Of a DNA stretch of 64,000 bases, positions 32,487 through 50,309 are shown piece by piece. Where the stretch lies: IMG/VR virus record IMGVR_UViG_3300032320_001881, positions 38,994-102,993 of that record. One strand, given 5' to 3'. This stretch comes from a virus (taxonomy: Duplodnaviria > Caudoviricetes). Below the pieces are notes generated by a model, which did not search any database, was not told where the DNA came from, and worked only from the letters and a program-made list of their open reading frames with translations. Positions within the stretch are counted from its first letter, which is position 1, and each line of letters begins with the position of its first letter. Made by a program: the position numbers and the translations under genes.

Positions 32487-32493
32487 AATACTT

Positions 32494-32724: not shown

Positions 32725-32844
32725 ATGTTTCCTTTATTATATTTTTTACTTATTATTTTTTATAAAGGAGCTAATTTTTTTGATGCTTTATTGTAAAGTT
32801 AATTTTTACCAACTTACTACAAAAAATTTAATATAAATAACACT

Positions 32845-33982: not shown

Positions 33983-33996
33983 TTACTATTTATTTT

Positions 33997-34089: not shown

Positions 34090-34097
34090 GTTAACAT

Positions 34098-34400: not shown

Positions 34401-34419
34401 ATTATACCTTTGTGGTTGA

Positions 34420-34590: not shown

Positions 34591-34621
34591 ATTAAATTCC
34601 TTGGTAATTGAGTGTAGTACT

Positions 34622-34650
34622 ATTATAAGGTCGATCACTAATAATGTCAA
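34622..34650 (-). promoter_or_regulatory. Sigma70-type promoter
   Basis: TTGACA-17-TATAAT. Confidence 0.75.
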
Positions 34651-34675
34651 GTTCTTTGGCTTACAGCCGAATTTT

Positions 34676-35293
34676 TTATTGGTTAAAAATTGGCATGCTG
34701 TCGACATTAAATAATTTGATATTTGTTGTGTCGAATATAAATTTTAAATCATCGATTGTTTTAGCATTTTTAACACTTTCTATCATTTTTAATTTAGCAG
34801 ATTTAATAATGAAGCTTGATTTTTGATATTCGCTTATTTTGAAATTCAATAATTTAACAGCATCTTCCTTTGAACAATTATAAGTATCTTCATATACATT
34901 GATCCATTCATCTTGCAATGGACCTTCGACTGATTCTAAATAGAAAGTATTGGGCAAATCCATGCGCTCGCTATAAAATGAAAATAATCCGTTTAATAGA
35001 TCAAATACTTGGCATTTATATCTTAAAAATTTTATTCTTTCTTCTTCTTGTTTTGTTTCGAATGGTTGTTCTTTGATAACCAATGATTTAGTATTTGGCA
35101 CATAAAATAATTTAAATTTTTCGTACTCCTTGTAAACATCAATACTAGGATGGCCAGTAAAACTTCTATAGTTTAGCGAAGGATCTATAATAGGAGGTAT
35201 AGCTCCGGGCATATAAGATAACCAAACTATTTGTTCGGTTACAGACTCTACTAACATTTTAAAGCGTTGTGCTGGAATAGTTCTTTGGTTCAT
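34676..35293 (-). CDS. Hypothetical helical protein, partner of 35290
   Basis: C-terminus resembles that of 29099-29755. Confidence 0.55.
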   Translation of the reverse strand: MNQRTIPAQRFKMLVESVTEQIVWLSYMPGAIPPIIDPSLNYRSFTGHPSIDVYKEYEKFKLFYVPNTKSLVIKEQPFETKQEEERIKFLRYKCQVFDLLNGLFSFYSERMDLPNTFYLESVEGPLQDEWINVYEDTYNCSKEDAVKLLNFKISEYQKSSFIIKSAKLKMIESVKNAKTIDDLKFIFDTTNIKLFNVDSMPIFNQ

Positions 35294-36342: not shown

Positions 36343-36343
36343 T

Positions 36344-36799
36344 TTAAATTGATTTTTCCATGCGATAAAATACAGGTTTCATTCCAACGCTTTCGCAACT
36401 AGCCTGTCTAGGTTTATTATCTAGATGAACAAAACTGGCTATTTTAGTTGATCCTAATTTTTTTGCTTGTATTTCGAAATGTTTATGCATAATTTTATAA
36501 AGACCTAAATTCCGATAATCTTCGTCAACACAACTGAAAACTATCCAAGCAGTATTATATACATCTTTTAACATATCAAATACAATATGAGCAACAATTT
36601 TGCTGTCAATTTCTATATAAACAGCCTTATTTGTATTTGCTCCGGTCATAATAGGGTGAGCATAACCTTGCTCTATTAAAGCTGCATAGTTCTTAAGGAA
36701 AAATGGAAGCACAGGAGTATCGGCTATGGCATCTGTTAATTTAACTATAACATTTTGATTTTTTTTGTTTAATTCTTGTCCTAGCACAACAATGCTCAT
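36344..36799 (-). CDS. GNAT-family acetyltransferase
   Basis: VDEDYRNLGLY motif A, VHLDN. Confidence 0.7.
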   Translation of the reverse strand: MSIVVLGQELNKKNQNVIVKLTDAIADTPVLPFFLKNYAALIEQGYAHPIMTGANTNKAVYIEIDSKIVAHIVFDMLKDVYNTAWIVFSCVDEDYRNLGLYKIMHKHFEIQAKKLGSTKIASFVHLDNKPRQASCESVGMKPVFYRMEKSI

Positions 36800-36886
36800 G
36801 TAAATTCCTTTAATCTTGAGCAAATATTTATGATCGATTTTTAAGTAAAGAAATTTTTAAAACTAAATATTAACACAGAAAAAATT

Positions 36887-37465
36887 ATGTCATATTATAA
36901 AACAGTAACTTGGGCAAATCCCGCAAAAGAAAAAATCCTTTCTTTAATTACAACGCCAACAATTCAAAATCCAAAAATAGGTTATGTTGGGCGAATATCT
37001 AATGACGAACAACTCAGTATTTTAAAACTACTAAATGTAAATAAAAAATTATACGATCAACATAATATATTGTTAATATATTTTTTGCCAAACGCTAAGA
37101 TTATGATTCACACAGATAATAGACCAAACGTTCCCAAACAACATCAGGCACACCAAACACTTATCTTACCTTTAAAAAATTGTGAAAAGATTAAATGGGG
37201 ATGGCATGAAGTTATCAACCCCGCAGGTATATTTAATTATGGTGAAGATAATAGATTTAATCCTGTGCCAAATGTACAAAAAGAGGACACAAAAGTTCTC
37301 AAAGAAATATATTGCGTTGATCCATTCATAGCTAACATAAAGCAATGGCACAATCTTATTAATGAAGGCGACGATATTGCTATTGGTATTAGTTTAAGAT
37401 TATTACCATGGAGTTGTGAAGTAGATTTTACTAAGCCACCTGTTCCAGATATTACAATACTATAA
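36887..37465 (+). CDS. Putative 2OG-Fe(II)/cupin oxygenase
   Basis: IHTD..LILPL..WHNL.N..SLR. Confidence 0.5.
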   Translation: MSYYKTVTWANPAKEKILSLITTPTIQNPKIGYVGRISNDEQLSILKLLNVNKKLYDQHNILLIYFLPNAKIMIHTDNRPNVPKQHQAHQTLILPLKNCEKIKWGWHEVINPAGIFNYGEDNRFNPVPNVQKEDTKVLKEIYCVDPFIANIKQWHNLINEGDDIAIGISLRLLPWSCEVDFTKPPVPDITIL

Positions 37466-37473
37466 ATAGTAGC

Positions 37474-38001
37474 ATGGAATATCATAGCATAGTATCTGTT
37501 TCTAATTGGAATTTAATTCAAAAAAAGTTTATACATAAGTTAAACATAATAGAAAATCAAAGGCAGATATTATTATCTGCCAAAGAAAAAAAATGGTTGT
37601 CAGATCAACTTTTACCCGATATTGAATCTATAACTGGCAAACAACATAAAATAACTCATGCTATACTTTTTATACAACAGCCTAAATCTGAATGTTCTAT
37701 TCATATTGATGGCATAAAACCTAATCGGGTAGACCATCCTAATTGGGCTGTTAACATTCCTATTACTGAAAGTGATGCCGAAATGTCTTGGTACGAAGGA
37801 GTATATTCGTTAAATATCAAAGATAGCCAAGGACTTGCTTATCTTGATATTGATTGGCGACACGGGCCAAACTTAGCTAAAACTATAAAAATTGATCGAC
37901 CAACAATAGTAAAAATTGATAAACCTCATAAGGTGGTTAATTTTTCAAATCATATAAGAATAATACTCAGTGTGCGCTTTAACCCAGATATATCTATATA
38001 G
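37474..38001 (+). CDS. Putative 2OG-Fe(II)/cupin oxygenase
   Basis: IHIDG..NIPI..PHKVVN..SVRF; paralog of 41240. Confidence 0.55.
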   Translation: MEYHSIVSVSNWNLIQKKFIHKLNIIENQRQILLSAKEKKWLSDQLLPDIESITGKQHKITHAILFIQQPKSECSIHIDGIKPNRVDHPNWAVNIPITESDAEMSWYEGVYSLNIKDSQGLAYLDIDWRHGPNLAKTIKIDRPTIVKIDKPHKVVNFSNHIRIILSVRFNPDISI

Positions 38002-38620
38002 TTCCGGGATCATTCAATCCCAATTGATCAAAACCCCAGCGTCGTTCGTTACAGCCATTACACCCATTACATCTTCCTACTTGCGATTGTTCGCCAGCAC
38101 AACTGTGAGTTATATAAAATAAAGGCTCCTGTTTAAATTTAATAATTATCTCTATAATATGGCTTTTATTAATTGATTGAAACGGTGTTTTAAATTTAGC
38201 AGTTTCTTTGCTAGGTATAGGCTGCCAATTTATCATATGTTGGGGTAGTTGTTCTATAACTCCAGCATATATAACATCAAATCCTAATTCTATAGCGTGA
38301 TTCACTCCAGACTTTACTTGTTCTTCTTCTGGCAAAGTATTATTGCCAACAATTATTGGATCGCAATAAGGTATTTTTAATGATTGATTAACATGACCAA
38401 TAACCAAACTACTAAAATACTTTGACCCTTCTTTACGCATAATAGAAATAGGAACTATTTCGTGTATGTTACCTCTTAATTTATTTTCTAATAGTAATAG
38501 ATAATATAAAATAGCACTATCTAACCCACCACTGACAAGTACACCTATTTTAGATTTTTGTGTAGGGAGAGTAATCAAGACCGTACGCTTATCGGTTTCT
38601 GGGCCACAAATTATGTTCAT
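37994..38620 (-). CDS. QueC-like PP-loop protein
   Basis: VSGGLDS, THSC..CNGCNGC.ER zinc motif. Confidence 0.6.
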   Translation of the reverse strand: MNIICGPETDKRTVLITLPTQKSKIGVLVSGGLDSAILYYLLLLENKLRGNIHEIVPISIMRKEGSKYFSSLVIGHVNQSLKIPYCDPIIVGNNTLPEEEQVKSGVNHAIELGFDVIYAGVIEQLPQHMINWQPIPSKETAKFKTPFQSINKSHIIEIIIKFKQEPLFYITHSCAGEQSQVGRCNGCNGCNERRWGFDQLGLNDPGTI

Positions 38621-38637
38621 TATAATCTATTTAGTAA

Positions 38638-38725
38638 TGGTGCCCCGGATGGGATTCGAACCCACAACTAGGTTTTTCCTTCTTCCTTTTAAGAGAAGTG
38701 CGTCTGCCAATTTCGCCACCGGGGT
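38638..38725 (-). tRNA. tRNA-Leu(TAA), atypical
   Basis: Loop CTTAAAA, long variable arm, A1:C72 mismatch, CCA. Confidence 0.75.
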
Positions 38726-38785
38726 ATAAGTGTAGGGTTTCCACCTACTTCCACTTCACTTTAGAGTCTGCGTGTCCAAGACTTG

Positions 38786-39397
38786 TTACATGGTTACTTG
38801 TGTAGTGCCGTTGCCATTTAGGAACCCAATGGTACCACCTTCTGCCTTAATCCGTTTGATTACATCTTCGAACAGGATAGGAGCAAAATCAGTTTGTTCC
38901 ACGCACACACAATGATATCGGACATCAATCCATTGCCTTACTCCGCGGGTCATAAACTCGTGTGTGGTTTGTGCTGTTTTCATCACACGATTGGCGTGAG
39001 TGTGTCCGTGGATGTTGACACCAAACCGACCCAGGCTTTCCTCATGGATAGGAATGTGACTCAAAATCATTCCATTCATTACATGATATGCACGAAGTTC
39101 ACGAAAGTATTCGCGATACTCCACATCTGGGAAGATATCGTGATTGCCGCGGATCAAGACCTTGTCACCGTTGAGTCGGCCCAGGGTTTTTAACGATTTC
39201 CTGTTGATGACTACGTCACCCAAGTGGTAGACCTTGTCTGTGGGCTTGACTCTTTCGTTCCATGCCTTGACCATAGCTTCATCCATTTCATCGGGATCGG
39301 TCCATGGTCGAAGTTTTGTCACACCATCATTGCGGGTAAAGCGGCACACACCCGCGTGACCAAAGTGTGTATCGCTAACTAGAAATACAGCGGGCAT
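38786..39397 (-). CDS. Calcineurin-like metallophosphoesterase
   Basis: SDTHFGH, HLGDV, GNHD, HGHTH. Confidence 0.9.
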   Translation of the reverse strand: MPAVFLVSDTHFGHAGVCRFTRNDGVTKLRPWTDPDEMDEAMVKAWNERVKPTDKVYHLGDVVINRKSLKTLGRLNGDKVLIRGNHDIFPDVEYREYFRELRAYHVMNGMILSHIPIHEESLGRFGVNIHGHTHANRVMKTAQTTHEFMTRGVRQWIDVRYHCVCVEQTDFAPILFEDVIKRIKAEGGTIGFLNGNGTTQVTM

Positions 39398-39424
39398 AAC
39401 GCCTCCTTTCTTTGTTAACAGGGT

Positions 39425-39964
39425 TTATAGGTTGTTTGTTTCTGCGAGCATTTTACAAACTTCATCATATGAAAATTCTTTAGTTTGTAATACTAATGCT
39501 TTTCTTATACCGTATTTGGTACAAGTTACTGAATGTGGATTAGTAACATCTAAAATAAATGCTTCTCCATCCTTAGCTATAAAATTATCTTGTTCAGCTA
39601 AGTCAGTTAATTCAAAAAGTGCTCCGTTAGTTTGATTTTCAATTTTTGAAGTTGTGGGATCGTTTGATTTAATTGAATAAAATTTTGTAATGGCATCTTG
39701 TGACTCTATATAAAAATTAATTGTAGCTAAAATGCCGCTATCAGTATGCGGCCTAACATGACAATTTATTTTCATAGATAACAATACAAATTTATTACGA
39801 TATTGTTCGGGGATTACTTCAAACAATTTAATGTTTGGTCCAATCGTTACAACGTCATATGAAATTCCATAAAAACTATCATCTCTAACTTTTCCATATC
39901 GTACTTGATTTTCTAGGGTTTGATAATCACTAAAAGTAAAGGTATTTTTTAATTTTTTAAACAT
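39425..39964 (-). CDS. Putative 2OG-Fe(II)/cupin oxygenase
   Basis: PHTD..INFYI..PHSV..R. Confidence 0.5.
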   Translation of the reverse strand: MFKKLKNTFTFSDYQTLENQVRYGKVRDDSFYGISYDVVTIGPNIKLFEVIPEQYRNKFVLLSMKINCHVRPHTDSGILATINFYIESQDAITKFYSIKSNDPTTSKIENQTNGALFELTDLAEQDNFIAKDGEAFILDVTNPHSVTCTKYGIRKALVLQTKEFSYDEVCKMLAETNNL

Positions 39965-40042
39965 AGTGATATTTAGTTGATATATTTGAGATATTGCTAA
40001 AAGTTTTATTCATATTTTTTATAAAAAAAGAGGGTTGAAGTA

Positions 40043-40273
40043 TTAACCCCAAACCTCTTTATACTTGCGAATTGCTAGTTGCCTAGCAAGCCATAATCTA
40101 AATTTTACATAATCACTTAAACCAGATTCTTCTGTGATTAGTTCTGGACGACGATACCCAACTTGAAAGTCTAGGTATTCGTCATAAAATTCGACTTCGT
40201 CGTCTTCGAATACTAGATTACTTAGCGGCTTTAGCGTCCTTGGCAGGAGCAGCTTTTGCGTCGCTTTTGGCAT
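40043..40273 (-). CDS. Hypothetical protein (start uncertain)
   Basis: Coding-like C-terminal half; 5' part overlaps 40218-40406. Confidence 0.4.
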   Translation of the reverse strand: MPKATQKLLLPRTLKPLSNLVFEDDEVEFYDEYLDFQVGYRRPELITEESGLSDYVKFRLWLARQLAIRKYKEVWG

Positions 40274-40406
40274 CAGCCTTTTTGGCTTCTTCTTTCTTAG
40301 CAGGTGCCGCAGCTGCTGGTTTTGCTTCTTCTTTCTTAGCAGGAGCTGTTTGAGCTACAGCGGAAAGTGCGAATACGGATGCTACGATTGCGAGTAATGC
40401 TTTCAT
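40218..40406 (-). CDS. Small secreted Ala/Lys-rich protein
   Basis: Signal peptide (..SAVA-Q) plus APAKKEEAK repeats; AAGGA RBS. Confidence 0.75.
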   Translation of the reverse strand: MKALLAIVASVFALSAVAQTAPAKKEEAKPAAAAPAKKEEAKKADAKSDAKAAPAKDAKAAK

Positions 40407-40503
40407 TTTAAGTTTCCTTTTAAAGTTAATATGTTAAGAAACCTCCTAACATACTATAATAACGCCTTAATTTACTAACGGGTTGACAGCGATCTTATCA
40501 AAA

Positions 40504-41130
40504 TTATATATTTTGGCAATTTACCTCGCATTTTTGATAAACAATAATATCTATTCCAGTATCCATATATGGAATACTCTTTGTTTTTTTAAATTTGCTT
40601 TCTACTTCTTCAAAAATATTAAAGTTGTCGTCCCTCCAAATTATATAATTGTTATTATCAACACTATCTGGAACAAATCTATGTAGCTCGTTTACTAAAA
40701 TAAAATAACCATTTGTTTTAACAACATTAAAAATATTTGAAATTTCTCTTTTAGGATTTTCGGTATGTTGTAAAACAAAAGTACTTATACATATATCTAT
40801 ACTATTAGGAGTTGTATATCTTATCAACGGTGTAAATTTCGCGGAATTATTAACATATGATTTGGCAAAGTTTAACATACTAACGCTGATGTCCACGCCT
40901 ATTACACTACAATTAAAGTTGTTAATAAGTTCACGACTTACTCGGCCCATACCACAACCAAAATCTAATATATTTGATTCTGATGTTATAATATTTTCAT
41001 CATTGATTATGTCAATTAAAAATTTTGTTTCTTGATGAAATTTATTAGGATTAGCTGGATCATCGGTTAAAACAACATTTTTTGCTTGCTCGATAGTTAC
41101 TACATCAAACGCTTCTTTAATATATCGCAT
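40504..41130 (-). CDS. Class I SAM-dependent methyltransferase
   Basis: ILDFGCGMGR, GVDIS, FVLQH. Confidence 0.85.
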   Translation of the reverse strand: MRYIKEAFDVVTIEQAKNVVLTDDPANPNKFHQETKFLIDIINDENIITSESNILDFGCGMGRVSRELINNFNCSVIGVDISVSMLNFAKSYVNNSAKFTPLIRYTTPNSIDICISTFVLQHTENPKREISNIFNVVKTNGYFILVNELHRFVPDSVDNNNYIIWRDDNFNIFEEVESKFKKTKSIPYMDTGIDIIVYQKCEVNCQNI

Positions 41131-41154
41131 TATTGTTCCTAAGTTTAATATTAT

Positions 41155-41228
41155 TGGCAGGGTTACTAGGACTCGAACCTAGAATGACGGAATCAAAATC
41201 CGTAGTGTTGCCATTACACCATAACCCA
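41155..41228 (-). tRNA. tRNA-Gln(TTG)
   Basis: Cloverleaf, loop TTTTGAT, CCA. Confidence 0.9.
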
Positions 41229-41239
41229 ATTAACCTTAA

Positions 41240-41776
41240 TTATGTAATATATAAATCCGGATCAAACCTTAGACTTAATAGTACTCTTGGGGCGTCGCTA
41301 TAATTTACTACAGTATGTGGAATATTGGCATATATCAATGTCGGTTTGTCTATCTTAATAGATTCTATTTCACGAGGACCATCGAGCCAAGTAAGGCCTA
41401 AATAATCTAATCCAGTGGGGGTGCTTATCACTTCCAATTCATATTTGCCATCGTACCATTTCATTTCTGAATTATCGCAATTTAAAATAGGAATATTTAA
41501 CCCCCACATTGGAATTTTCGATCGATCTAATTGATCACCATCAACATGAATTCCTCTATTAGAATTACCGTACATGAAAAAAAGCATAGCTCTTTGAATA
41601 CGATGTTTGCTATTAAGTTGAGTTTCTAAATCATCTAACACTATAGATTCCAAAAATGAAAACTCTTCTTTTGGCAAATGTAAGGCTTTCACTTTGCCAA
41701 CCATTGATACATAATGGTTATATTTTTCTGATATTTCTTGCCAGCGCGAAATTTGAATAGATTGGCTATACTTCAT
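41240..41776 (-). CDS. Putative 2OG-Fe(II)/cupin oxygenase
   Basis: IHVDG..NIPI..PHTVVN..SLRF. Confidence 0.55.
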   Translation of the reverse strand: MKYSQSIQISRWQEISEKYNHYVSMVGKVKALHLPKEEFSFLESIVLDDLETQLNSKHRIQRAMLFFMYGNSNRGIHVDGDQLDRSKIPMWGLNIPILNCDNSEMKWYDGKYELEVISTPTGLDYLGLTWLDGPREIESIKIDKPTLIYANIPHTVVNYSDAPRVLLSLRFDPDLYIT

Positions 41777-41808
41777 AAAACTTATTTATTTGTTAAAACT
41801 AGTCAAAA

Positions 41809-41958
41809 TTAGCTTGGGACTATGTGTGGAATATATGGAACATTTCTAGGACCATGGCGTTGTTCGAGAAGTTGTCTAGCTTCCTGTAAATCCTTAGCGT
41901 AGACTCGATCCTTTTTTTCACCGTCTGGTGTTCTTACAGTTGTTTCATACATTGGCAT
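41809..41958 (-). CDS. 49-aa hypothetical protein
   Basis: MPMYETTVRTPDG.. after AAGGAG RBS. Confidence 0.65.
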   Translation of the reverse strand: MPMYETTVRTPDGEKKDRVYAKDLQEARQLLEQRHGPRNVPYIPHIVPS

Positions 41959-41972
41959 ATATTTCTCCTTAA

Positions 41973-42047
41973 TGGTTGCGGGGGATGGACTCGAACCACC
42001 GACCTTCAGCTTATGAGACTGACTAGCTACCTCTGCTACACCCCGCG
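41973..42047 (-). tRNA. tRNA-Met(CAT), initiator-like acceptor stem
   Basis: CGCGGGG/CCCCGCA with C1:A72, loop CTCATAA. Confidence 0.85.
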
Positions 42048-42063
42048 TCAATATGTTTAATTA

Positions 42064-42163
42064 GTGATAGTTTTTCGGATGTCAGGAAAACTATCAAACC
42101 CCGTGCCGACAGCCCATCCCGGTTTCGTCGACAGCGGATGCGGAATATTAAACGGGTCCGCAA
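42064..42163 (-). ncRNA. Candidate structured ncRNA
   Basis: GC-rich non-coding island with three hairpins between tRNA-Gly and tRNA-Met. Confidence 0.5.
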
Positions 42164-42167
42164 TACT

Positions 42168-42241
42168 TGGAGCGGGTAGAGAGAATCGAACTCTCAACTA
42201 AACCTTGGCAAGGTCTCGGGTTACCATTACACCATACCCGC
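42168..42241 (-). tRNA. tRNA-Gly(GCC)
   Basis: Loop TTGCCAA, U73, CCA. Confidence 0.9.
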
Positions 42242-42267
42242 TTCGAAACTTTATTTATTTTCAGAAC

Positions 42268-42341
42268 TGGAGCGGGATAAGAGAATCGAACTCTTGACCG
42301 AAGATTGGAAATCTGCTGTTTTACCATTAAACTAATCCCGC
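42268..42341 (-). tRNA. tRNA-Gly(TCC)
   Basis: Loop TTTCCAA, U73, CCA. Confidence 0.9.
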
Positions 42342-42358
42342 TTTGAAATATTGACTTT

Positions 42359-42443
42359 TGGTAGGAATGGGCGGGGTCGAACCGCCATGGCTTGCGCCGG
42401 CAGATTTTAAGTCTGCTGAGTATACCTGTTTCTCCACATTCCC
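42359..42443 (-). tRNA. tRNA-Leu(TAA)
   Basis: Loop CTTAAAA, long variable arm, CCA. Confidence 0.9.
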
Positions 42444-42521
42444 GATACGACTATTATTATATAATATTATCTCATGCCAATCAAACTTTTTGATTAAAAA
42501 TATCTGGCACTAAATATAGTC

Positions 42522-43364
42522 ATGAAAATTGAACATATTTTTAACTCATGGGCTAGTATAACACATGTAGATTCTTTTGAAGAGTTTATGTCTATTGATA
42601 GCAAACTCTTAACAAATCTAGTCCTTAATAGAAATTTAATTATAATCAAAGGACTTGGTCCTAATTTATCTGATGAAGAATTTTATTCTTTAGGAGGAAA
42701 ATTTGGCAATGTGTGGGCTCGGGACGATTACAAAAAGTCTTTTATTTCTCAAGGCAATGATTCTACTATTGATCAAAATAATTTAAAACCTGTAAGTTAT
42801 TTTCAATCTGACAACAATATGTTTAAAAATGATTATATGGCATACCATGCCGACATGCCACATGTTAATGAACTTAGCTATCCTGGCAGAGCATTATATA
42901 TGGTTAAAAATACTCCTGATGGATCTGGTGATACAACCTGGTTAAATCTTGAATTAGCATGGGATCAACTTACTCAAGCTGAAAAAGATAGTTTTTCTGA
43001 ATATAAAGTTATATTTCAAGATATGTATGTTCCAAATACAAGATTAGAAATACTTCCGTTTCTTAAAATTAATCCCAAAACAAATAAACCTAGTCCTAAT
43101 TTAAACTGTTACGATCATCCTAATAACAATCAAAAGGCTTGGATTAATAGAATATTAAAAAATAATGTAGCTTTAAAAGCTCAAGAAATAGATCTGTTTA
43201 TGTTCAATACATATAAATTATTAGAAAGTAAACCCGACACACTTTATAAACATATATGGCAGTTAGGCGATATTATTGTTTATGACAATTGGTTTAACGT
43301 TCATAAACGGGAAGCTGTAAATGGCCCTAGGTTGCTCAAAAGATTAACTTTCAATTTTATATAA
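42522..43364 (+). CDS. TauD/TfdA-family 2OG-Fe(II) dioxygenase
   Basis: YHAD, GDTTW, HIWQLGDIIVYDN..HKR..RLLKR. Confidence 0.8.
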   Translation: MKIEHIFNSWASITHVDSFEEFMSIDSKLLTNLVLNRNLIIIKGLGPNLSDEEFYSLGGKFGNVWARDDYKKSFISQGNDSTIDQNNLKPVSYFQSDNNMFKNDYMAYHADMPHVNELSYPGRALYMVKNTPDGSGDTTWLNLELAWDQLTQAEKDSFSEYKVIFQDMYVPNTRLEILPFLKINPKTNKPSPNLNCYDHPNNNQKAWINRILKNNVALKAQEIDLFMFNTYKLLESKPDTLYKHIWQLGDIIVYDNWFNVHKREAVNGPRLLKRLTFNFI

Positions 43365-43366
43365 TT

Positions 43367-43912
43367 ATGCAACATCCATATAGTTATAAACTTATTGGCA
43401 ATCTATCTCAGTCGTTATTAGAAGAATTAAAAATAATAGCGCCCGAGCAAGAATATTTTAGTGTTCCTGATTTTCACGCCAATGTTATTAAAGTTAGTAG
43501 GAGTAGACGCCAGCTTGCCGAAAACTATCAGAATATAATTAACAAAGTTTACAAAGAGCTGGCAAAGTTTTTTGATCCAGGAGGTAATATAGAAACTAAT
43601 TTTGCTTGTATGTATCCTAATACTTATTTGGTCGAACATGCTGATTATAATGCTGTAAATTATGGATCAATGCAAGACAATATTATAAAAATACAAATTC
43701 CTATTATTACAAATGATAAAGTGGCTGCAATGTGGCGCAACACCGAAGATAATGATTTAAAATCTATAGTAGCTCAGTTAGTTGAAGGTGGCATTTATAT
43801 TTTTAATAATGTACAGATACACTCGGCTATAAATCTTAGTAATCAAAATCGATATTATCTTACTATAAGATTTAAAAAAGATGCTGTTCGTGACTATTTA
43901 ATTTTAGAATAA
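43367..43912 (+). CDS. Aspartyl/asparaginyl beta-hydroxylase-like oxygenase
   Basis: EHAD..QIPIITN..IHSAIN..R. Confidence 0.6.
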   Translation: MQHPYSYKLIGNLSQSLLEELKIIAPEQEYFSVPDFHANVIKVSRSRRQLAENYQNIINKVYKELAKFFDPGGNIETNFACMYPNTYLVEHADYNAVNYGSMQDNIIKIQIPIITNDKVAAMWRNTEDNDLKSIVAQLVEGGIYIFNNVQIHSAINLSNQNRYYLTIRFKKDAVRDYLILE

Positions 43913-43927
43913 CTGATATTTAAGTAC

Positions 43928-44398
43928 TTACTCGTTAGCTACTTTTAAATTTTTCATTCTATCTGCGGCATAAGTTGCCGCAAATGCGCGAGGTTTAACC
44001 AGTGGTTCGACATTACAGGTACCTCGGATATATCCTATTGCCTGAGATACTATATTAGAACTTGTGTGATGTTCGTCTGGATTAATGTCTAAGTGTACCT
44101 CTACTACTCGATTTTCTAATGCTTCTGAAAGTTTCAAATATAATTCGCTTACTTTAAATACTTCTGTCATTAACCTGGTATTGGGTTTGTCTACTCGATC
44201 ATAATCTCGTTCGCGAGTAACTTCTCCGAATAACTTACACCCGTTATTACCATTTATATGTATTACAATAGCTGCAGTATAGTCAGCATACCATACATTA
44301 TCTCTTTTAATTCGTTCAGAGTCTACGCCAATATAAATTTTAGTCTCTGGACCTTGCAGGTCAATAAATTCTTTGATTAGTGGTATGTTGAATTTCAT
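43928..44398 (-). CDS. RNase H-like YkuK (DUF458) family protein
   Basis: IYIGVDS, RLMTEV, EVHLDIN, KP.AFAA.YAADR. Confidence 0.75.
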   Translation of the reverse strand: MKFNIPLIKEFIDLQGPETKIYIGVDSERIKRDNVWYADYTAAIVIHINGNNGCKLFGEVTRERDYDRVDKPNTRLMTEVFKVSELYLKLSEALENRVVEVHLDINPDEHHTSSNIVSQAIGYIRGTCNVEPLVKPRAFAATYAADRMKNLKVANE

Positions 44399-44418
44399 TA
44401 ATATCTTTCAAAGTTGGT

Positions 44419-44492
44419 TGGCGAATCCCCAGGGAATCGAACCCCGATCTGCGGTTTTGGAGACCGATGTAATGCCATTATACCAGGGACTC
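44419..44492 (-). tRNA. tRNA-Trp(CCA)
   Basis: Loop CTCCAAA, CCA. Confidence 0.9.
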
Positions 44493-44511
44493 ATATTATC
44501 TGTTTTAATTA

Positions 44512-45117
44512 TTATATAGCAAACAACATATTCCTAACAGTATTAAAATCTAATGAGTGATTATTTAATCTTAGTGTAAGAATTTTTCTTACATTTGTAG
44601 ACTTTGAATTGTCCCACCGATGCCATATATCGGTATTAAATAAAATAAATTCGTTTGGTTTAACTATTAATGTTTTCGAAGGAGTTCTTATTCTTTTACT
44701 AAATTCTTTAGGTTTTCGAGCATATGGTAACGCATCTGGATCTAATGTATCGCAATCACTAAGTTCTTCGTCGGAGAACCAACTAGTCAAACAATTACTA
44801 TCTAATATTTGTATAGGAATATTGAAACTTACTTTAGTATCAATACCGTCTTTATGTATACCATTTTTTTGGCCTGGCGGAGTTTCAAAAATTGCTACTC
44901 TGTCTTGTTTAAAGTCAAATAGAAGCGCCATAGGTAACATACTTAGAACTTGTTGCGCCAATTCTTTGTTAAAATTATGATGAATATATGCTTTATATAT
45001 TCTAGTATCGATTTTTTTAAAATCTTGATTAGCAACAAACTCTATTATTTTATTTAATCCATCGAAGGTAAATCTAATATAATACGGACTACAATCTTCT
45101 ATAATAGTATATATCAT
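44512..45117 (-). CDS. Putative 2OG-Fe(II)/cupin oxygenase
   Basis: YTIIEDCSPYYIRFTFDGL, IHKD, FNTDIWH; paralog of 27042. Confidence 0.55.
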   Translation of the reverse strand: MIYTIIEDCSPYYIRFTFDGLNKIIEFVANQDFKKIDTRIYKAYIHHNFNKELAQQVLSMLPMALLFDFKQDRVAIFETPPGQKNGIHKDGIDTKVSFNIPIQILDSNCLTSWFSDEELSDCDTLDPDALPYARKPKEFSKRIRTPSKTLIVKPNEFILFNTDIWHRWDNSKSTNVRKILTLRLNNHSLDFNTVRNMLFAI

Positions 45118-45138
45118 AATACTATTTAGCAAATGGTT

Positions 45139-45214
45139 TGGCGCTCCCGACCGGATTCGAACCGGTGTACTCGCCGTGAAAGGGCGATGTCCTAGGCCTC
45201 TAGACGACGGGAGC
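45139..45214 (-). tRNA. tRNA-Glu(TTC)
   Basis: Loop CTTTCAC, CCA. Confidence 0.9.
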
Positions 45215-45217
45215 GAA

Positions 45218-45375
45218 GTGCCCGGCTACTCATTGTCATAGAGCCCCGGGCTAGAGTTATCACTGTTAGTTGTATCCGCTACAACCTGCGTGGAGATTTT
45301 TGTCTAATCTACCTAACCCTAACTGCTATGGCGAGTCAGCAACCCCTAGTATTGACCCCTAGGTCGGGCGACATT
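45218..45375 (-). ncRNA. Candidate structured ncRNA
   Basis: About 155-nt GC-rich multi-hairpin island between tRNA-Asp and tRNA-Glu. Confidence 0.5.
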
Positions 45376-45377
45376 CT

Positions 45378-45452
45378 TGGCGGTCTCAACCGGAATCGAA
45401 CCGGTCTCCCCTCAGTGACAGTGAGGAATACTTACCGATATACTATGAGACC
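45378..45452 (-). tRNA. tRNA-Asp(GTC)
   Basis: Loop CTGTCAC, CCA. Confidence 0.9.
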
Positions 45453-45458
45453 AAGTTT

Positions 45459-45535
45459 TGGAGTGGGTGACAGGAATCGAACCTGCATAAAACGGATTTG
45501 CAATCCGTAGCCTAACCGTTCAGCGGCACACCCAC
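45459..45535 (-). tRNA. tRNA-Cys(GCA)
   Basis: Loop TTGCAAA, U73, CCA. Confidence 0.9.
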
Positions 45536-45541
45536 ATAAAG

Positions 45542-45625
45542 TGGTGGAGAATACTGGGATCGAACCAGTCATGCCAAAGGCGGCGGATTTACAGTCCACT
45601 GCATCACCATTGATGCTTCTTCTCC
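45542..45625 (-). tRNA. tRNA-Tyr(GTA)
   Basis: Loop CTGTAAA, long variable arm, CCA. Confidence 0.9.
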
Positions 45626-45627
45626 GC

Positions 45628-45754
45628 ATAGTAAAACACACTCGGTAGAATATGCTTTACTATACACTAATTTTTCTTCCCACAAGAGGGATTTCATCCT
45701 AGTGCCCGCCCATTCGGTCCATGTTTTACGTGCAGACCAGGATCTCGTTTCCTA
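45628..45754 (-). ncRNA. Candidate structured ncRNA or tRNA-operon leader
   Basis: Hairpins, a three-way junction and a 16-bp hairpin directly after a sigma70-like promoter. Confidence 0.45.
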
Positions 45755-45760
45755 TAACAC

Positions 45761-45789
45761 ATTATACTACAATTTTACTACTTTGTCTA
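45761..45789 (-). promoter_or_regulatory. Sigma70-type promoter
   Basis: TAGACA-17-TATAAT. Confidence 0.6.
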
Positions 45790-45951
45790 GTCTTCGATTT
45801 GATGATAGACTGATTTTTTCAAAGATTCGTAATAGTGAACAGCTCGTTCCAATTTTTCGTCAATCAATTTACGCTTCTCTTCTTTGGATAAGACGTGCGA
45901 ATAAGCCTGTTTAACAATGCGATCATTTAATTTGGTATAATCAATTGCCAT
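45787..45951 (-). CDS. 54-aa protein downstream of the attenuator
   Basis: MAIDYTKLNDRIVKQAYSHVLSKEEKRKLIDEKLERAVHYYESLKKSVYHQIED; AAGGA RBS. Confidence 0.65.
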   Translation of the reverse strand: MAIDYTKLNDRIVKQAYSHVLSKEEKRKLIDEKLERAVHYYESLKKSVYHQIED

Positions 45952-45970
45952 TTTCTTTCCTTTATAAAGT

Positions 45971-46000
45971 AAAAAACCCTGGAGTGTTTAGTTCCAGGGT
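45971..46000 (-). terminator. Intrinsic terminator of a putative attenuator
   Basis: ACCCTGGA-9nt-TCCAGGGT followed by a U tract. Confidence 0.8.
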
Positions 46001-46030
46001 CTTGGTTAAAAATATATTATTAATACAATA

Positions 46031-46147
46031 TTAACTAAGACCCTTATGTGGTTCGCAAACATCATTATTCATTACACAATCCACTGCCCAATAGGATAGC
46101 CCGCCTAATGTTGGCTGTTGTAATAATGAATGAATAATAGTTTTCAT
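46031..46147 (-). CDS. 38-aa putative attenuator leader peptide
   Basis: MKTIIHSLLQQPTLGGLSYWAVDCVMNNDVCEPHKGLS; last codons are complementary to the terminator's 5' arm. Confidence 0.65.
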   Translation of the reverse strand: MKTIIHSLLQQPTLGGLSYWAVDCVMNNDVCEPHKGLS

Positions 46148-46157
46148 AATATTGTAT

Positions 46158-46186
46158 ATTGTATGGTATTTATGTTTGTTTGTCAA
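46158..46186 (-). promoter_or_regulatory. Sigma70-type promoter with TAAATA in the spacer
   Basis: TTGACA-AACAAACATAAATACCA-TACAAT. Confidence 0.75.
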
Positions 46187-46198
46187 CCTTTATTTTTA

Positions 46199-46453
46199 CT
46201 AATGGTTCCATTTTAGTAAAAATAATGTAGAATCGGTATCACGGGCAAAACTTACACCACATAAATGAGGTTGATTTAGTGTCCACATAGTCCAGGTCCA
46301 CTGAATGTAATGTCGGCCAATGTTAGATTCAAGCCAGGTTTCCATAATATCAACTGCGGCTATCCAATCTAGATTCCCATTGGTTTCTATGACGGGCCAT
46401 GGCGCTACAGCCCTATAAGGAAGCTCGGGATGTCGATCCCAAAGTGCTCGCAT
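46199..46453 (-). CDS. Small FxLxW-family protein
   Basis: ETWLESNIG..STLFLLKW. Confidence 0.6.
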   Translation of the reverse strand: MRALWDRHPELPYRAVAPWPVIETNGNLDWIAAVDIMETWLESNIGRHYIQWTWTMWTLNQPHLCGVSFARDTDSTLFLLKWNH

Positions 46454-46508
46454 GATACAACTATTTAAGAACTAAATCATATCATTATATTAATAGTAAA
46501 TGGTCAAC

Positions 46509-46534
46509 AAAAAAGCCCGCGAACGGGCTTTTTT
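46509..46534. terminator. Intrinsic terminator
   Basis: AAAAAAGCCCG-cgaa-CGGGCTTTTTT. Confidence 0.8.
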
Positions 46535-46550
46535 AGATTACTCTTAAAAA

Positions 46551-47288
46551 TTAATTAAAAGTTTTGGTCAATCCTACTACTACTGCGTTCTTATAGAGTT
46601 TTTGACCACTTACAGTATTAGCAGTTTCAAATGATCTGCTTGTTCCGGTATTGGTAAAATACTTAACACTTAAATCAAATGCTTTTGGCAAAGAATAAAC
46701 GAAACCAGCATTGATATCGTTGTAATCATATGCTGAACTGTTAGCCACATTTGTACGACCATAATGAGCTACAACAGCTAGATTTTTAACTACAGGAACT
46801 GGCAACTTGCCATCGACTTGTGTATAGTTGGTACCTTTGGCATTGGCAGTACCGAAGTAACCGTTGCCGAGTGTTTGGCTATACTTGGCACTAATGATGT
46901 CTTTGTAGCCTAAGCCGACAAAGCCTTCGTATGTGTCAAAGTTTGAACCAGTTCGTGCTGAAGTTGTCGCACGTGGATAGAAATAATTATAGGTACCGAT
47001 ATCAACTGAGATTCCTTTAAAAATTTCTTTCTTATAACCAGCATACAAATCAGACTCTACACCTGCGCCACTTGTGTATACTTGGCTTGAAACAGAACTG
47101 TTCCAGTTACCAATATAAAATCCACTCTTGTGTGCGTAGTCGATGCCGCCTTGTACAGCAGGAGCATTTTGGGATTGACTGATACCGCGGAAACGATAAT
47201 CAGAAGTCAAACCTAAATTGCCTGTTACTTGTGCTTGAGCTGTACTAATACCAGCAATCGCGAATAATGCTAATAATACTTTTTTCAT
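46551..47288 (-). CDS. TorF/Gcw_chp-family outer-membrane beta-barrel protein
   Basis: Signal peptide, SDYRFRGISQS..PAVQGGIDY..GFYIGNWNS, C-terminal aromatic residue. Confidence 0.85.
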   Translation of the reverse strand: MKKVLLALFAIAGISTAQAQVTGNLGLTSDYRFRGISQSQNAPAVQGGIDYAHKSGFYIGNWNSSVSSQVYTSGAGVESDLYAGYKKEIFKGISVDIGTYNYFYPRATTSARTGSNFDTYEGFVGLGYKDIISAKYSQTLGNGYFGTANAKGTNYTQVDGKLPVPVVKNLAVVAHYGRTNVANSSAYDYNDINAGFVYSLPKAFDLSVKYFTNTGTSRSFETANTVSGQKLYKNAVVVGLTKTFN

Positions 47289-47410
47289 GCTTTGTTTCCT
47301 TTATGTTATAATACTAAGACAGTATTTAGTGTTTCTACTGATGAGCCAGCAGAAAAATTGCTTGATTTCGATAAATTTTAAGTGTAATGTATATACATAA
47401 TGGAGTCAAC

Positions 47411-47435
47411 AAAAACGGCACAATAAAGTGCCGTT
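47411..47435 (-). terminator. Terminator after tmRNA
   Basis: AACGGCAC-tttatt-GTGCCGTT followed by T tract. Confidence 0.75.
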
Positions 47436-47841
47436 CTTGGGATTTTCTGTTACGAGGTATACCTACCCTAAGCAGTGATTAAACTGCTAAAGATTGGCCT
47501 TTGGCTGCTAAAGTGCGGAACTTGATGTTCTTAGCTGAAACAGTTACTTCGCCAGTAGATGCTTTTGCATTTACGAGATTTGCTTGATTTACAGTCATCG
47601 CCTACTGTGTTGCCGTCCTTATTAGCTCACCATGTCGAAACCGGTCGGGCCCATCAAAAATAACCTAATTAGCAATGACCAAAATGTCTTGCTCGGATGA
47701 ACCGCACAATTGACCTAGCGGTATCTATATACATCTGTCTAAGTTTTAGTTCTGTTTTATCCATATAAGTTCCTTTTGGTGGACCCGGGCGGAATTGAAC
47801 CGCCGTCCACAGCGCCTTCACTTGGAAGGAATTACAACAAT
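47436..47841 (-). ncRNA. ssrA: Circularly permuted (two-piece) tmRNA
   Basis: Acceptor piece ..GGCGGTTCAATTCCGCCCGGGTCCACCA ends at 47777; coding piece starts GGGCCCGACCGGTTTCGAC at 47652; G3.U70 pair; tag ORF 47568-47479. Confidence 0.85.
47669..47764 (-). CDS. 31-aa ORF inside the tmRNA intervening segment
   Basis: AAGGA RBS; MDKTELKLRQMYIDTARSIVRFIRARHFGHC. Confidence 0.55.
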   Translation of the reverse strand: MDKTELKLRQMYIDTARSIVRFIRARHFGHC

Positions 47842-47847
47842 ATCGTT

Positions 47848-47876
47848 ATTATACGACACAAGTATTTATGTGTCAA
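47848..47876 (-). promoter_or_regulatory. Sigma70 consensus promoter for tmRNA, TAAATA in the spacer
   Basis: TTGACA-CATAAATACTTGTGTCG-TATAAT. Confidence 0.85.
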
Positions 47877-47916
47877 CCAGGTCCGTCCTACCACCAATTT
47901 TAAACAAAATTGGAAA

Positions 47917-48298
47917 CTATAAAATTAATAAAAACACAATGGTTACTATAACCACGCCAATAGCAAAATTGTAATCTTGATTCATATTATTTGTAGTATT
48001 GAAATAAGATCATGAATGCTAAAAACACAGCAATAGCCCCGACTAAGGGCCATGGCATGTGGCTTTGACGCATTTCGTCAATAGTTTTCTTTATTTTCAT
48101 AGATATGTTCCTAAAAACCAAATTACAAATAATAAGGTAAGCCCGCCGGCTAAAATTTTGAGTGCGCCTATCTGGCGATCATTTTGTTCGGGAGTGCAAA
48201 GTCGTTTCCAATGTTTATTCATTATCAATCCATTCTTTCAATAAAATCATAGTATACAGTAAAATACCAACAACAAGTATCGCTAATATTATGCCCAT
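47917..48298 (-). other. Four tandem micro-ORFs encoding single-pass membrane peptides
   Basis: 48298-48215 (27 aa), 48222-48097 (41 aa), 48100-47987 (37 aa), 47985-47917 (22 aa); overlapping or abutting stops and starts. Confidence 0.55.
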
Positions 48299-48299
48299 G

Positions 48300-48470
48300 T
48301 TAGTTGTACCCTTTCACGTTTTTACCATCATGAATAGGATTGCCTCGTACTATTACATTTTCTAATTGTTGGGCACGATCACGCTCTGGGGGTAATGGAC
48401 CACAACCTAATCTATCCCACTCGCTTTGTGAGTAGTAATATCCTTCTACTGGTTTTTTGTTCTGTTCCAT
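48300..48470 (-). CDS. 56-aa hypothetical protein
   Basis: MEQNKKPVEGYYYSQSEWDRLGCG..; TAAATA-N5-ATG. Confidence 0.6.
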   Translation of the reverse strand: MEQNKKPVEGYYYSQSEWDRLGCGPLPPERDRAQQLENVIVRGNPIHDGKNVKGYN

Positions 48471-48485
48471 AAATTTATTTAGTCC

Positions 48486-48562
48486 TGGTGGGCCGTCTAG
48501 GATTCGAACCTAGCACCAAAGGATTATGAATCCTCTGCTCTAACCTAATGAGCTAACGGCCC
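48486..48562 (-). tRNA. tRNA with CAT anticodon, probably Ile2 (lysidine type)
   Basis: GGGCCGT/ACGGCCC-A-CCA, loop TTCATAA; Ile versus Met identity is inferred. Confidence 0.8.
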
Positions 48563-48583
48563 TATATTAATAATATAACATCT

Positions 48584-48952
48584 TCAATTATAATTGTCAA
48601 GAAACTTTTCCAAATCGCCGTATAAATTGGCTAATACTGCTTCTTTACTGCCAAAAAACACTACAGATTTTGGAATGCCTTTTGTTGCTATGATATAATA
48701 AGGCATTTGCAACTTTCTATCTAGCGCCAATATCATATGTTGATTAAATGTCATAGGATCTTTGATTTTGTATTCATAAAATTCTAAATCAAGATCTTTA
48801 GCCAATGCTCCCCACCCGGTAGAAGTTAGTCTTAACCCACCAGTTGGACGCACATTGTACCACCATAATACTTTAGCTGTATCCAAACTAATCCTTTTTC
48901 CTTCAGGAAGTTGTGATATTAATTTTTTTGTAAGTTTAATTTTATCACGCAC
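48584..48952 (-). CDS. Hypothetical phage protein
   Basis: 122 aa, GGLRLT.TG. Confidence 0.6.
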   Translation of the reverse strand: MRDKIKLTKKLISQLPEGKRISLDTAKVLWWYNVRPTGGLRLTSTGWGALAKDLDLEFYEYKIKDPMTFNQHMILALDRKLQMPYYIIATKGIPKSVVFFGSKEAVLANLYGDLEKFLDNYN

Positions 48953-48964
48953 AATAATATCATC

Positions 48965-49252
48965 TTAAGGATATATTTGTTCGCCTTGCTTGAGTAATAT
49001 TACGCTAAACTTATCAGTCTTAAATTGTATATTAAGTTTTTTAGCAAGATTAATTGCATGACCAGGATTACTAAAACTTACCTTTTTATATTTAGGCCCA
49101 GGATATTGAACTAATAAATTAGAAGTTTTAAGATTAACTGGTTTACTATCAAAATAAACAGCCCATACTCCTTCCGAAGCAAGTACTTGCTCGGTTTTGT
49201 ATGTTTGCTTGTTTGTAAGCTCTGCTAGGATCGTTGGCTTTGGTCTCGACAT
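48965..49252 (-). CDS. Hypothetical phage protein
   Basis: 95 aa; TAAATA upstream. Confidence 0.65.
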   Translation of the reverse strand: MSRPKPTILAELTNKQTYKTEQVLASEGVWAVYFDSKPVNLKTSNLLVQYPGPKYKKVSFSNPGHAINLAKKLNIQFKTDKFSVILLKQGEQIYP

Positions 49253-49282
49253 AGTATATTATTTATCCATAATATACTCATA

Positions 49283-49492
49283 TTAAAACTTCCCACCGTC
49301 AATTTTGACCTCAATAACCTCCTCAGTTTGGGCTTGTAATGCCGCTTGTTGAAAGGTTCTAAGTTCGAGTAGTAGTTCGGTTAAGTCGGCTGCCATACCT
49401 TTAGCATCTTTCATAGGCATGACAAAGTCCTTACCCCCTTTGGCATCATTGGCACGGACTCTTTCGATAAATTTTTGTAAGTGTATACTCAA
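49283..49492 (-). CDS. Hypothetical protein
   Basis: 69 aa in a coupled run. Confidence 0.6.
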   Translation of the reverse strand: MSIHLQKFIERVRANDAKGGKDFVMPMKDAKGMAADLTELLLELRTFQQAALQAQTEEVIEVKIDGGKF

Positions 49493-49863
49493 TGTTCTCT
49501 CTTTAAAAAGTTTTCTAATTTAGGTGGTTCCCACCCCTCTGGTTTAAGAATTTTACCATCATCGCGGCGTCGTACCTTGCCTAACTGTCGATCAATTTTA
49601 GCAAAATTGGTAGCCATTACTTCACGCCAAGCGCCCTCGCCATCTGCTCCTAAGGAGTTAATAGCACCAATGGTAACTACAATAATATCAATTAAAGCAT
49701 CTAATGTTTCAACTTTATCTTGATTAGCAATAGCTACACGAAGTTCTTCATATTCTTCTGTAATTAAATTGCAATACATTTTAAATTGTTCATCGTTCAT
49801 GCCTGATATTGTTTGTTCACAGGCGGTCATGAATTTATCTTGATCTCTGAATGGATTTGTCAT
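49489..49863 (-). CDS. MazG-like / PRA-PH-like NTP pyrophosphohydrolase
   Basis: LITEEYEE..DALID..NFAK..RDDGKILKP. Confidence 0.75.
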   Translation of the reverse strand: MTNPFRDQDKFMTACEQTISGMNDEQFKMYCNLITEEYEELRVAIANQDKVETLDALIDIIVVTIGAINSLGADGEGAWREVMATNFAKIDRQLGKVRRRDDGKILKPEGWEPPKLENFLKREH

Positions 49864-50309
49864 TTAGGTTGTGCCTCTTCTTCAGTTAGGAATGGTCCCT
49901 TGTAAGGGTATCGTTGTAAAACGATTAATTTAGGATCTTGTTGGGCATGCCAGTGTCGTCCTTGTCTAACGGTATACCAACCGGCCGCATACCAAGATTT
50001 ACTTTTCTTTGTTTTGGTATAGACTGGTAGCTTTTGTGGAACGTCCCACATAGGATTAAACACTCTACCAGCAGCTGGATAGCCATGTACTATATTAGTA
50101 ATTTTTTTCTTTAATGTTTTGATAGCTGGTTCAAAATGTACATTAATATTACGTTCGACTAGTTTAATAGTTTTATATTGCGCTACTACTTGATTATTAA
50201 TTTTGACTTGATACCCACCATCACAAGCTTCAATATTTCCTACTTTATTATTATTTTCTTGTAAAATCCAAAATTGTTTATCGATTACTGGTTTAGCTAC
50301 TAAACTCAT
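49860..50309 (-). CDS. Hypothetical phage protein
   Basis: 149 aa. Confidence 0.6.
   Translation of the reverse strand: MSLVAKPVIDKQFWILQENNNKVGNIEACDGGYQVKINNQVVAQYKTIKLVERNINVHFEPAIKTLKKKITNIVHGYPAAGRVFNPMWDVPQKLPVYTKTKKSKSWYAAGWYTVRQGRHWHAQQDPKLIVLQRYPYKGPFLTEEEAQPK

Follow-up and report, generated by a model that had tools for sequence, protein, structure and literature searches.

The analysis of a 64,000-nucleotide (nt) stretch of viral DNA (Duplodnaviria; Caudoviricetes; record IMGVR_UViG_3300032320_001881, positions 38,994 to 102,993), hereafter the window, revealed on its minus strand a compact module of about 215 nt, with a host-type promoter, a short leader open reading frame (ORF), an antiterminator and an intrinsic terminator, lying ahead of a block of transfer RNA (tRNA) genes. 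This element is probably a ribosome-operated transcription attenuator heading a phage tRNA operon, which would be on by default and would be shut off by timely translation of the leader. The reading is built on the anatomy of the module, its conservation, the covariation of both helices, the maintenance of the ORF, the link with the tRNA array and the match between leader and array. The source record, an IMG/VR contig of 103 kb from an uncultured phage, is estimated to be about 30% complete, and the phage is therefore very large.

Anatomy and Proposed Operation of the Module

The features of the module, given in the order of transcription, are as follows.

46186-46158, minus strand: sigma-70-type promoter, TTGACA (46186-46181), 17-nt spacer and TACAAT (46163-46158), 11/12 in the consensus scan
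46147-46031, minus strand: near-leaderless leader ORF of 38 codons, MKTIIHSLLQQPTLGGLSYWAVDCVMNNDVCEPHKGLS, with ATG at 46147 and stop TAA at 46033-46031
46143-46057, minus strand: predicted long hairpin I within the leader ORF, its apex formed by CCAA (Gln-Pro codons) and the complementary TTGG, in which the Trp codon lies
46044-46031, minus strand: antiterminator 5′ arm, AGGGTCTTAGTTAA, formed by the final leader codons and the stop codon
46009-45996, minus strand: antiterminator 3′ arm, TTAACCAAGACCCT, whose last 5 nt are the start of the terminator 5′ arm
46000-45971, minus strand: intrinsic terminator, 8-bp stem, 9-nt loop ACTAAACAC and T6

Promoter, ORF, antiterminator pairing and overlapping terminator all lie exactly where the initial annotation of the window had placed them. 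The leader promoter was among the best-scoring sites in the 40-50 kb region of the window in the consensus scan, and the leader ATG stands 10 nt past the -10 hexamer. No Shine-Dalgarno sequence was found ahead of this ATG in the window, and from the promoter spacing the 5′ untranslated region of the leader transcript is expected to be about 3-5 nt at most. The two antiterminator arms pair at 13 of 14 positions, with an A.C as the sole mismatch, and the stem of the terminator is formed by ACCCTGGA (46000-45993) and TCCAGGGT (45983-45976), with the T run ending at 45971. The antiterminator 3′ arm and the terminator 5′ arm overlap by 5 bases (46000-45996). The terminator motif occurs once in the window (vs 0 expected), and no second leader module was found there. 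Hairpin I ends about 12 nt ahead of the antiterminator arm.

The attenuator would operate as follows. Host RNA polymerase would start at the strong sigma-70 promoter, placing the transcript 5′ end at most about 4 nt from the AUG, and since the transcript would start at or near the AUG, a ribosome could load without a Shine-Dalgarno sequence. The predicted antiterminator would draw its 5′ arm from the last codons and stop of the 38-codon ORF and would share 5 nt of its 3′ arm with the terminator. When the 5′ arm is free, the antiterminator would form and polymerase would read through into a gene of 54 amino acids (aa), a structured RNA and the genes of tRNA-Tyr, Cys, Asp, Glu and Trp; when a ribosome stands at the last codons or the stop as the 3′ arm emerges, the 5′ arm would be covered, the terminator would form and transcription would end. 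Because the antiterminator is transcribed first and is more stable, the design would be on by default and turned off by the ribosome. The likely signal would be slow decoding of array codons, because the leaders carry the amino acids of the downstream tRNAs, and with such a signal the phage would regulate its tRNA supply by feedback. This scheme presumes that the leader is translated and that the ribosome position decides termination, and the stress that triggers it in nature may be starvation or the action of anticodon nucleases.

Distribution of the Module in Related Phages

The comparison sequences were IMG/VR phage contigs, which yielded 54 distinct versions of the module beyond that of the window. 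A search with the terminator motif gave 69 stretches, and the combined set comprises 55 distinct leader sequences, the window's own included. A protein-based search, independent of the RNA elements, was made with homologues of the 54-aa gene (8 loci) and of an 84-aa gene that lies ahead of the leader promoter (6 loci), and the module was present in all 14 of these loci. The promoter form GGTTGACA...TAnAAT is common to the 55 distinct leaders, and the ATG lies 6-11 nt past the -10 hexamer in every one of them (55/55), with 36 showing the truly leaderless spacing of 6-7 nt. ORF lengths range from 20 to 53 codons in the relatives; the stop codon lies 28-37 nt ahead of the terminator loop in 55/55, and it is always in, or just past, the antiterminator 5′ arm. 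In the additional locus L035, the ORF and both hairpins are likewise present, but the -35 hexamer is degenerate.

Wherever the downstream sequence exceeded 420 nt (50 loci), same-strand tRNA genes were present behind the module in every case. A sister family (L027, L034, L052, L053 and L072) has leaders of 20-22 codons that lack Trp and hairpin I, and its tRNA-Gly gene starts 13-34 nt past the terminator. The initial annotation had proposed to look for the same geometry ahead of tRNA clusters in related phages, and this geometry recurs, with a fixed stop position, covarying arms and an open frame. No cultured phage with the module was found: blastn of 45400-46500 against a phage collection matched tRNA genes only, and tblastn with the window's 1375-aa protein gave no match in the search for cultured relatives.

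Covariation of the Two Helices

Cognate antiterminator arms from 18 families paired at -12.7 kcal/mol vs -9.1±0.6 kcal/mol for arms swapped between families, and none of 20000 permutations was as good; this test is independent of any alignment. The distal, stop-proximal half of the antiterminator alone gave a weaker signal (501/20000). Matched arm pairs include GTTAA/TTAAC in the window and GAATA/TATTC, TGATT/AATCA and CGTAATCT/AGATTACG. In a MAFFT alignment, 59 cells were changed on both sides of the helix vs 29.6 in shuffles (0/500). A single consensus antiterminator on this alignment was rejected, with only 66.7% of the cells pairing, which is due to the size of the internal loop differing among families and shifting the register. 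In all 43 aligned sequences (100%) the terminator stem is paired, and three of its pairs are changed on both sides. The shared alignment column 74 (T45996) covaries with its partners in both helices, and every lineage retains the 5-nt overlap of the two helices, even L004, whose terminator sequence is unrelated.

The terminator loop ACTAAACAC, within GGAACTAAACACTCC (45984-45992, minus strand), is conserved across families with unrelated leaders, although terminator loops do not usually show such conservation. This motif was a selection criterion in the main search; among the protein-found loci, 12/14 have it with no more than one mismatch over the 15-nt core, while L013 has four and L004 an unrelated terminator. 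As a separate observation, the loop AACACT is complementary to the AGTGTT with which the downstream structured RNA starts in many loci.

Predicted Folding of the Leader and Modelled Effect of a Ribosome

In the window, the antiterminator is the minimum-energy structure of an 86-nt fold (z = -3.3; 0/200 shuffles as good), and the terminator is the one chosen in a 201-nt fold (z = -2.95; better than all 200 shuffles). As isolated hairpins, the antiterminator and terminator of the window have -17.8 and -13.6 kcal/mol, respectively, and across 52 sequences the values were -17.9±4.1 and -13.8±1.1 kcal/mol, respectively. The effect of a ribosome was approximated by keeping a 28-nt block unpaired at the ribosome site in each of 55 leaders, and in this purely thermodynamic model the predicted structures were distributed as follows.

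Ribosome at the stop: terminator 52/55, antiterminator 3/55
Ribosome stalled at codon 10: terminator 17/55, antiterminator 38/55
Ribosome absent: terminator 21/55, antiterminator 34/55

The masking geometry fits an attenuator of the trp/his type, as the stop codon sits in the antiterminator 5′ arm. The first nine or more nucleotides are unpaired in 35/54 predicted leader folds.

Hairpin I was found in most leaders. That of the window stays clear of the antiterminator arm, and an extension as far as the GGGGTC core is limited to a few families (L024-type and L037). The apical stem of hairpin I changes in a compensatory manner in relatives (CCAGG/CCTGG, CCAGT/ACTGG and CCCAGA/TCTGGG), and it could possibly act as an RNA polymerase pause until the ribosome catches up. 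A long-range pairing between AAACCC and the 3′ arm of the terminator, which RNAalifold suggested for one clade, was discarded as an anti-antiterminator, with 0/7 pairs changed on both sides.

Match Between the Leader and the tRNA Array

The leader of the window holds all five gated amino acids, as Y19, W20, D23, C24, D29, C31 and E32, and its peptide uses 18 of the 20 amino acids, whilst random 37-mers of phage composition average 15.9. The coverage of 18 amino acids to which the initial annotation had drawn attention was counted rightly, yet it is ordinary for one leader. Coverage of the tRNA-encoded amino acids by this leader is likewise within chance (P = 0.05-0.12): the probability that a random 37-mer includes Y, C, D, E and W together is 0.12, and for all eleven non-Met amino acids of the tRNAs it is 0.05. 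Neither is the window leader enriched for the five gated amino acids (0.19 vs 0.20 expected).

The match emerges when the families are compared. Of the leader residues, a fraction of 0.485 had a tRNA for their amino acid at most 2.5 kb away, vs 0.411 for permuted arrays (0/20000). Presence of an amino acid in the leader was associated with its presence in the array at a Mantel-Haenszel (stratified) odds ratio of 7.9. In 20 families, only three tRNA-encoded amino acids in total are missing from their own leader, whereas 35.5±4.7 would be expected from random leader-like peptides and 16.4±3.0 if arrays are swapped; leaving out Trp and Cys gave three missing vs 13.1±2.9. Not one of 50000-100000 simulated trials gave a missing count as low. 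For amino acids without a nearby tRNA, 41 were missing vs 35.6 expected, a frequency close to chance. A Fisher combination of the per-family coverage P values was set aside as unsuitable, these values being coarse and bounded, and the summed statistic was simulated instead.

The initial proposal of a general sensor of almost any charged tRNA is upheld comparatively as far as the attenuator is concerned; the sensor itself appears, from the composition of the leaders, to be matched to its own downstream array rather than fully general. A further step would be that the leader acts as a rewritable roster, in which every lineage keeps at least one codon per amino acid of its downstream tRNAs, so that the loss of any one tRNA would switch on the array, which would be shut off once decoding is restored. 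In such a roster, loss of a tRNA through host tRNA decay or anticodon nucleases would stall the lead ribosome. We offer this extension tentatively and lean slightly against it. If true, the tRNA genes would be under product-feedback control via translation, and the module would also be an inducible counter-defence.

The most serious rival keeps the same attenuator and lets it report global translation capacity, with the composition of the leader carrying no information; the signal could be the free 70S ribosomes able to start on leaderless mRNA, or the rate of elongation relative to polymerase speed. The leaderless start conserved in 55 leaders and the ribosome-free read-through fold in 34/55 both suit such a signal, as do the lack of a single-codon run, the lack of enrichment in the window leader (0.19 vs 0.20) and a codon-level match that is not significant. 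We nevertheless regard it as unlikely, since the amino acids of a leader's own array are represented in it far more fully than those of other arrays. Moreover, the sole superfamily without leader Trp is also without a downstream tRNA-Trp, and in one family, L053, 20/21 non-initiator residues belong to the amino-acid set of the downstream tRNAs vs a fraction of 0.51 expected.

Evidence for the Leader ORF

Across 18 families, the leader frame contains no stop in 670 codons, vs 53 and 46 stops in the other two frames. Leader lengths vary by whole codons, and the frame stays open across these in-frame length changes. Variable sites at codon positions 1, 2 and 3 numbered 77, 71 and 96, respectively, and 108 codon columns were amino-acid-changing vs 40 synonymous-only, indicating weak constraint on the peptide. 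Neither the leader peptide nor the 54-aa and 84-aa proteins matched a Pfam or PHROG family. A frame that stays open while its peptide changes fast is the pattern of a regulatory leader and not of a working small protein. The peptide motifs QP...W and NSI/NND partly coincide with the arms of the hairpin inside the ORF.

These data bear on the possibility that the leader is a structured non-coding RNA with an incidental ORF, in which a protein, a small molecule or a put-type polymerase-modifying RNA sets the choice of hairpin, for instance through a ligand that recognizes hairpin I or the conserved loop of the terminator. Both elements are indeed conserved as RNA, motifs such as QP...W coincide with stem sequences, and the codon-position bias (77/71/96) is weak. 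A non-coding leader is nonetheless quite improbable: it does not account for the absence of in-frame stops (vs 53 and 46) through so many in-frame length changes, for an AUG at the transcript start in every leader, within a 5′ end that is unpaired over at least 9 nt in 35/54, or for a stop codon always in or just past the antiterminator 5′ arm. The amino-acid match between leader and array would be meaningless for an untranslated RNA, and no Rfam riboswitch, T-box or leader model matched. An ordinary small protein gene with a compound terminator, whose first hairpin only stabilizes the mRNA or slows release and whose helix overlap has no regulatory role, would suit an ORF conserved as such and a strong promoter and terminator forming a complete small unit, but it is most improbable given the fast turnover of a peptide without a family, the 5-nt overlap in every lineage including L004, the shared column covarying with both partners, and the promoterless tRNA genes 13-34 nt past the terminator in one family and structured RNA about 21 nt past it in others.

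Findings That Weigh Against the Attenuator Reading

Several points speak against a ribosome-operated, array-matched attenuator. A tandem run of regulatory codons was not found in the leaders; the initial annotation had noted this for the window, where a mixed amino-acid set stands instead of a run of one codon. Its claim that the leader has codons for every downstream tRNA was not supported at the codon level, as the match to the phage anticodons, measured on amino acids with several codon boxes, was not significant (0.62 vs 0.58, p = 0.11). Some residues that match the array sit 5-8 codons ahead of the stop, and a ribosome stalled on them would partly mask the antiterminator arm; when the last eight codons were excluded, 22 amino acids were missing and not three, still fewer than the 35.5 of swapped arrays (P = 1e-4). 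The leader families are related, and the permutation P values therefore overstate independence.

The folding is also equivocal in part. The ribosome-free full leader of the window has the terminator, and not the antiterminator, as its minimum-energy fold. As little energy separates the two states, folding kinetics would decide the outcome. At 9 nt the loop of the terminator is long, which makes the efficiency of termination uncertain, and no consistent anti-antiterminator of the 1:2 type was observed across the folds of the leaders. Leaderless initiation is suggested by promoter spacing, and the 5′ untranslated region in the window would be about 3-5 nt and not zero. Finally, a second promoter in the window bypasses the attenuator, so the attenuated promoter adds to an unregulated one.

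Genes Behind the Terminator

Downstream of the terminator, the following features were recorded.

45951-45787, minus strand: first gene past the terminator, coding for 54 aa and provided with its own ribosome-binding site
45789-45761, minus strand: second promoter bypassing the attenuator, TAGACA-17-TATAAT, 11/12
45760-45627, minus strand: conserved structured RNA with a long hairpin behind it, in the interval from the 54-aa gene to tRNA-Tyr
45545-45625, minus strand: tRNA-Tyr
45462-45535, minus strand: tRNA-Cys
45378-45452, minus strand: tRNA-Asp
45139-45214, minus strand: tRNA-Glu
44419-44492, minus strand: tRNA-Trp

Homologues of the 54-aa gene, with 41-62% identity, were found at the same position in 8 contigs; many relatives lack this gene and have the structured RNA, or a tRNA, immediately past the terminator. 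The promoter at 45789-45761, which the initial annotation had described as also feeding the tRNAs, is present. A promoter-like site of at least 10/12 between terminator and RNA was found in only 5 of 28 distinct relatives, the window included, and most relatives have no other promoter-like site ahead of the RNA and the tRNAs.

The structured RNA lies past the attenuator in about 40 loci, either at +21 nt or, where a small gene of about 54 aa intervenes, behind that gene. Compensatory changes were observed in 12 of its 14 predicted pairs, and it had no Rfam match. It displays a GGN-AACGAGR-NCC hairpin, an invariant GGGCGG and a nested helix with a UUGUG loop. The long hairpin that follows it (GTATAGTAAAGCA ... 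TGCTTTACTATAC, window 45627-45664) has conserved arms and an interior of highly variable length; it was also seen in relatives, including L068:2237-2423 and L004:3195-3381, and in some relatives its interior holds tRNA-like pieces, such as a GGTTCGATTCC T-arm.

Fourteen minus-strand tRNA genes lie downstream, 12 of them detected by ARAGORN, together with tRNA-Tyr(GTA) and tRNA-Cys(GCA), which default ARAGORN missed and which were found by Rfam and by ARAGORN at a lowered threshold. The count of 14 given in the initial annotation is thus correct, but the attenuator can gate only five of them, as two convergent plus-strand genes (42522-43912) separate these five from the other nine. The distal nine have promoter-like sites of their own on the minus strand, e.g., 42484-42456. 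A 206-aa ORF lies between tRNA-Glu and tRNA-Trp, the co-directional block runs to about 43920, and no terminator-like site was found on the minus strand from 45787 to 43920. The last gene of the tRNA block encodes an RNase H-like protein (43928-44398, minus strand; PF04308, E = 3e-16; phrog_11311).

On the other side of the module, the window carries a 245-aa phage protein with a signal peptide (46551-47288, minus strand), with a match to the functionally uncharacterized Pfam family Gcw_chp (PF09694, E = 4e-46); its homologue ends just ahead of the leader promoter in several relatives. Directly upstream of this porin-like gene and the attenuator lies a permuted transfer-messenger RNA gene of the betaproteobacterial type (47388-47875, minus strand), whose promoter (47876-47848) is a full consensus, 12/12.

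Comparison with Known Systems

Phage tRNA genes are generally seen as simply expressed cargo that corrects a mismatch in codon usage, replaces decaying host tRNAs or evades tRNase defence. If the ribosome-operated switch proposed here is real, the phage would measure decoding speed and dose its tRNA supply accordingly. A literature search found no published trp-operon-style attenuator of phage tRNA genes.

The classical attenuators of enterobacterial amino-acid operons comprise trpL, hisL, leuL and pheL, and the multivalent thrL and ilvL. The phage module shares with the trp/his type a short leader ORF, a terminator ahead of the controlled genes, a mutually exclusive antiterminator and, as proposed, the ribosome position as decider, and with the thr and ilv leaders a mixture of several amino acids. 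It differs in that phage tRNA genes and not biosynthetic enzymes would be regulated, in its predicted leaderless mRNA, in the lack of tandem regulatory codons and in the stop codon lying inside the antiterminator 5′ arm. As no consistent 1:2 anti-antiterminator was found, an untranslated phage leader would be expected to read through and not super-attenuate, unlike an untranslated trp leader, which terminates. Rfam leader families gave no hits at E ≤ 0.1 in 30000-50000, and the best permissive hit was Thr_leader with 19.9 bits vs a threshold of 55.

T-box riboswitches bind uncharged tRNA directly and have no ORF. They resemble the phage element in a decision between terminator and antiterminator that reports tRNA status and controls translation-related genes, and the phage element differs from them in its conserved ORF, for which reason sensing by a ribosome is favoured over a T-box. 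T-box RF00230 had no match even at E ≤ 10.

Ribosome-stalling attenuators of antibiotic-resistance genes, such as vmlR of Bacillus subtilis (PMC9226507), respond to drug-bound ribosomes. This type likewise has a short upstream ORF with a terminator/antiterminator pair and senses generally slowed ribosomes; it serves resistance proteins, in contrast to the phage module, with its tRNA genes and a leader composition that follows the tRNA set.

The nearest published biology found is the trn operon of Anabaena sp. PCC 7120, a long tRNA array on a megaplasmid that is induced when translation is impaired (PMC8421152). Both systems would be accessory tRNA arrays switched on under translational stress. 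The Anabaena array is regulated through promoter repeats, and an attenuator, leader or terminator is not mentioned in that report (PMC8421152); the bacterial megaplasmid uses promoter repeats where the phage would use an attenuator. If the proposed switch is correct, classic attenuation logic would extend from amino-acid synthesis to tRNA genes, and the more than 50 natural variants with differing leaders and arrays would provide a ready-made set for the study of specificity.

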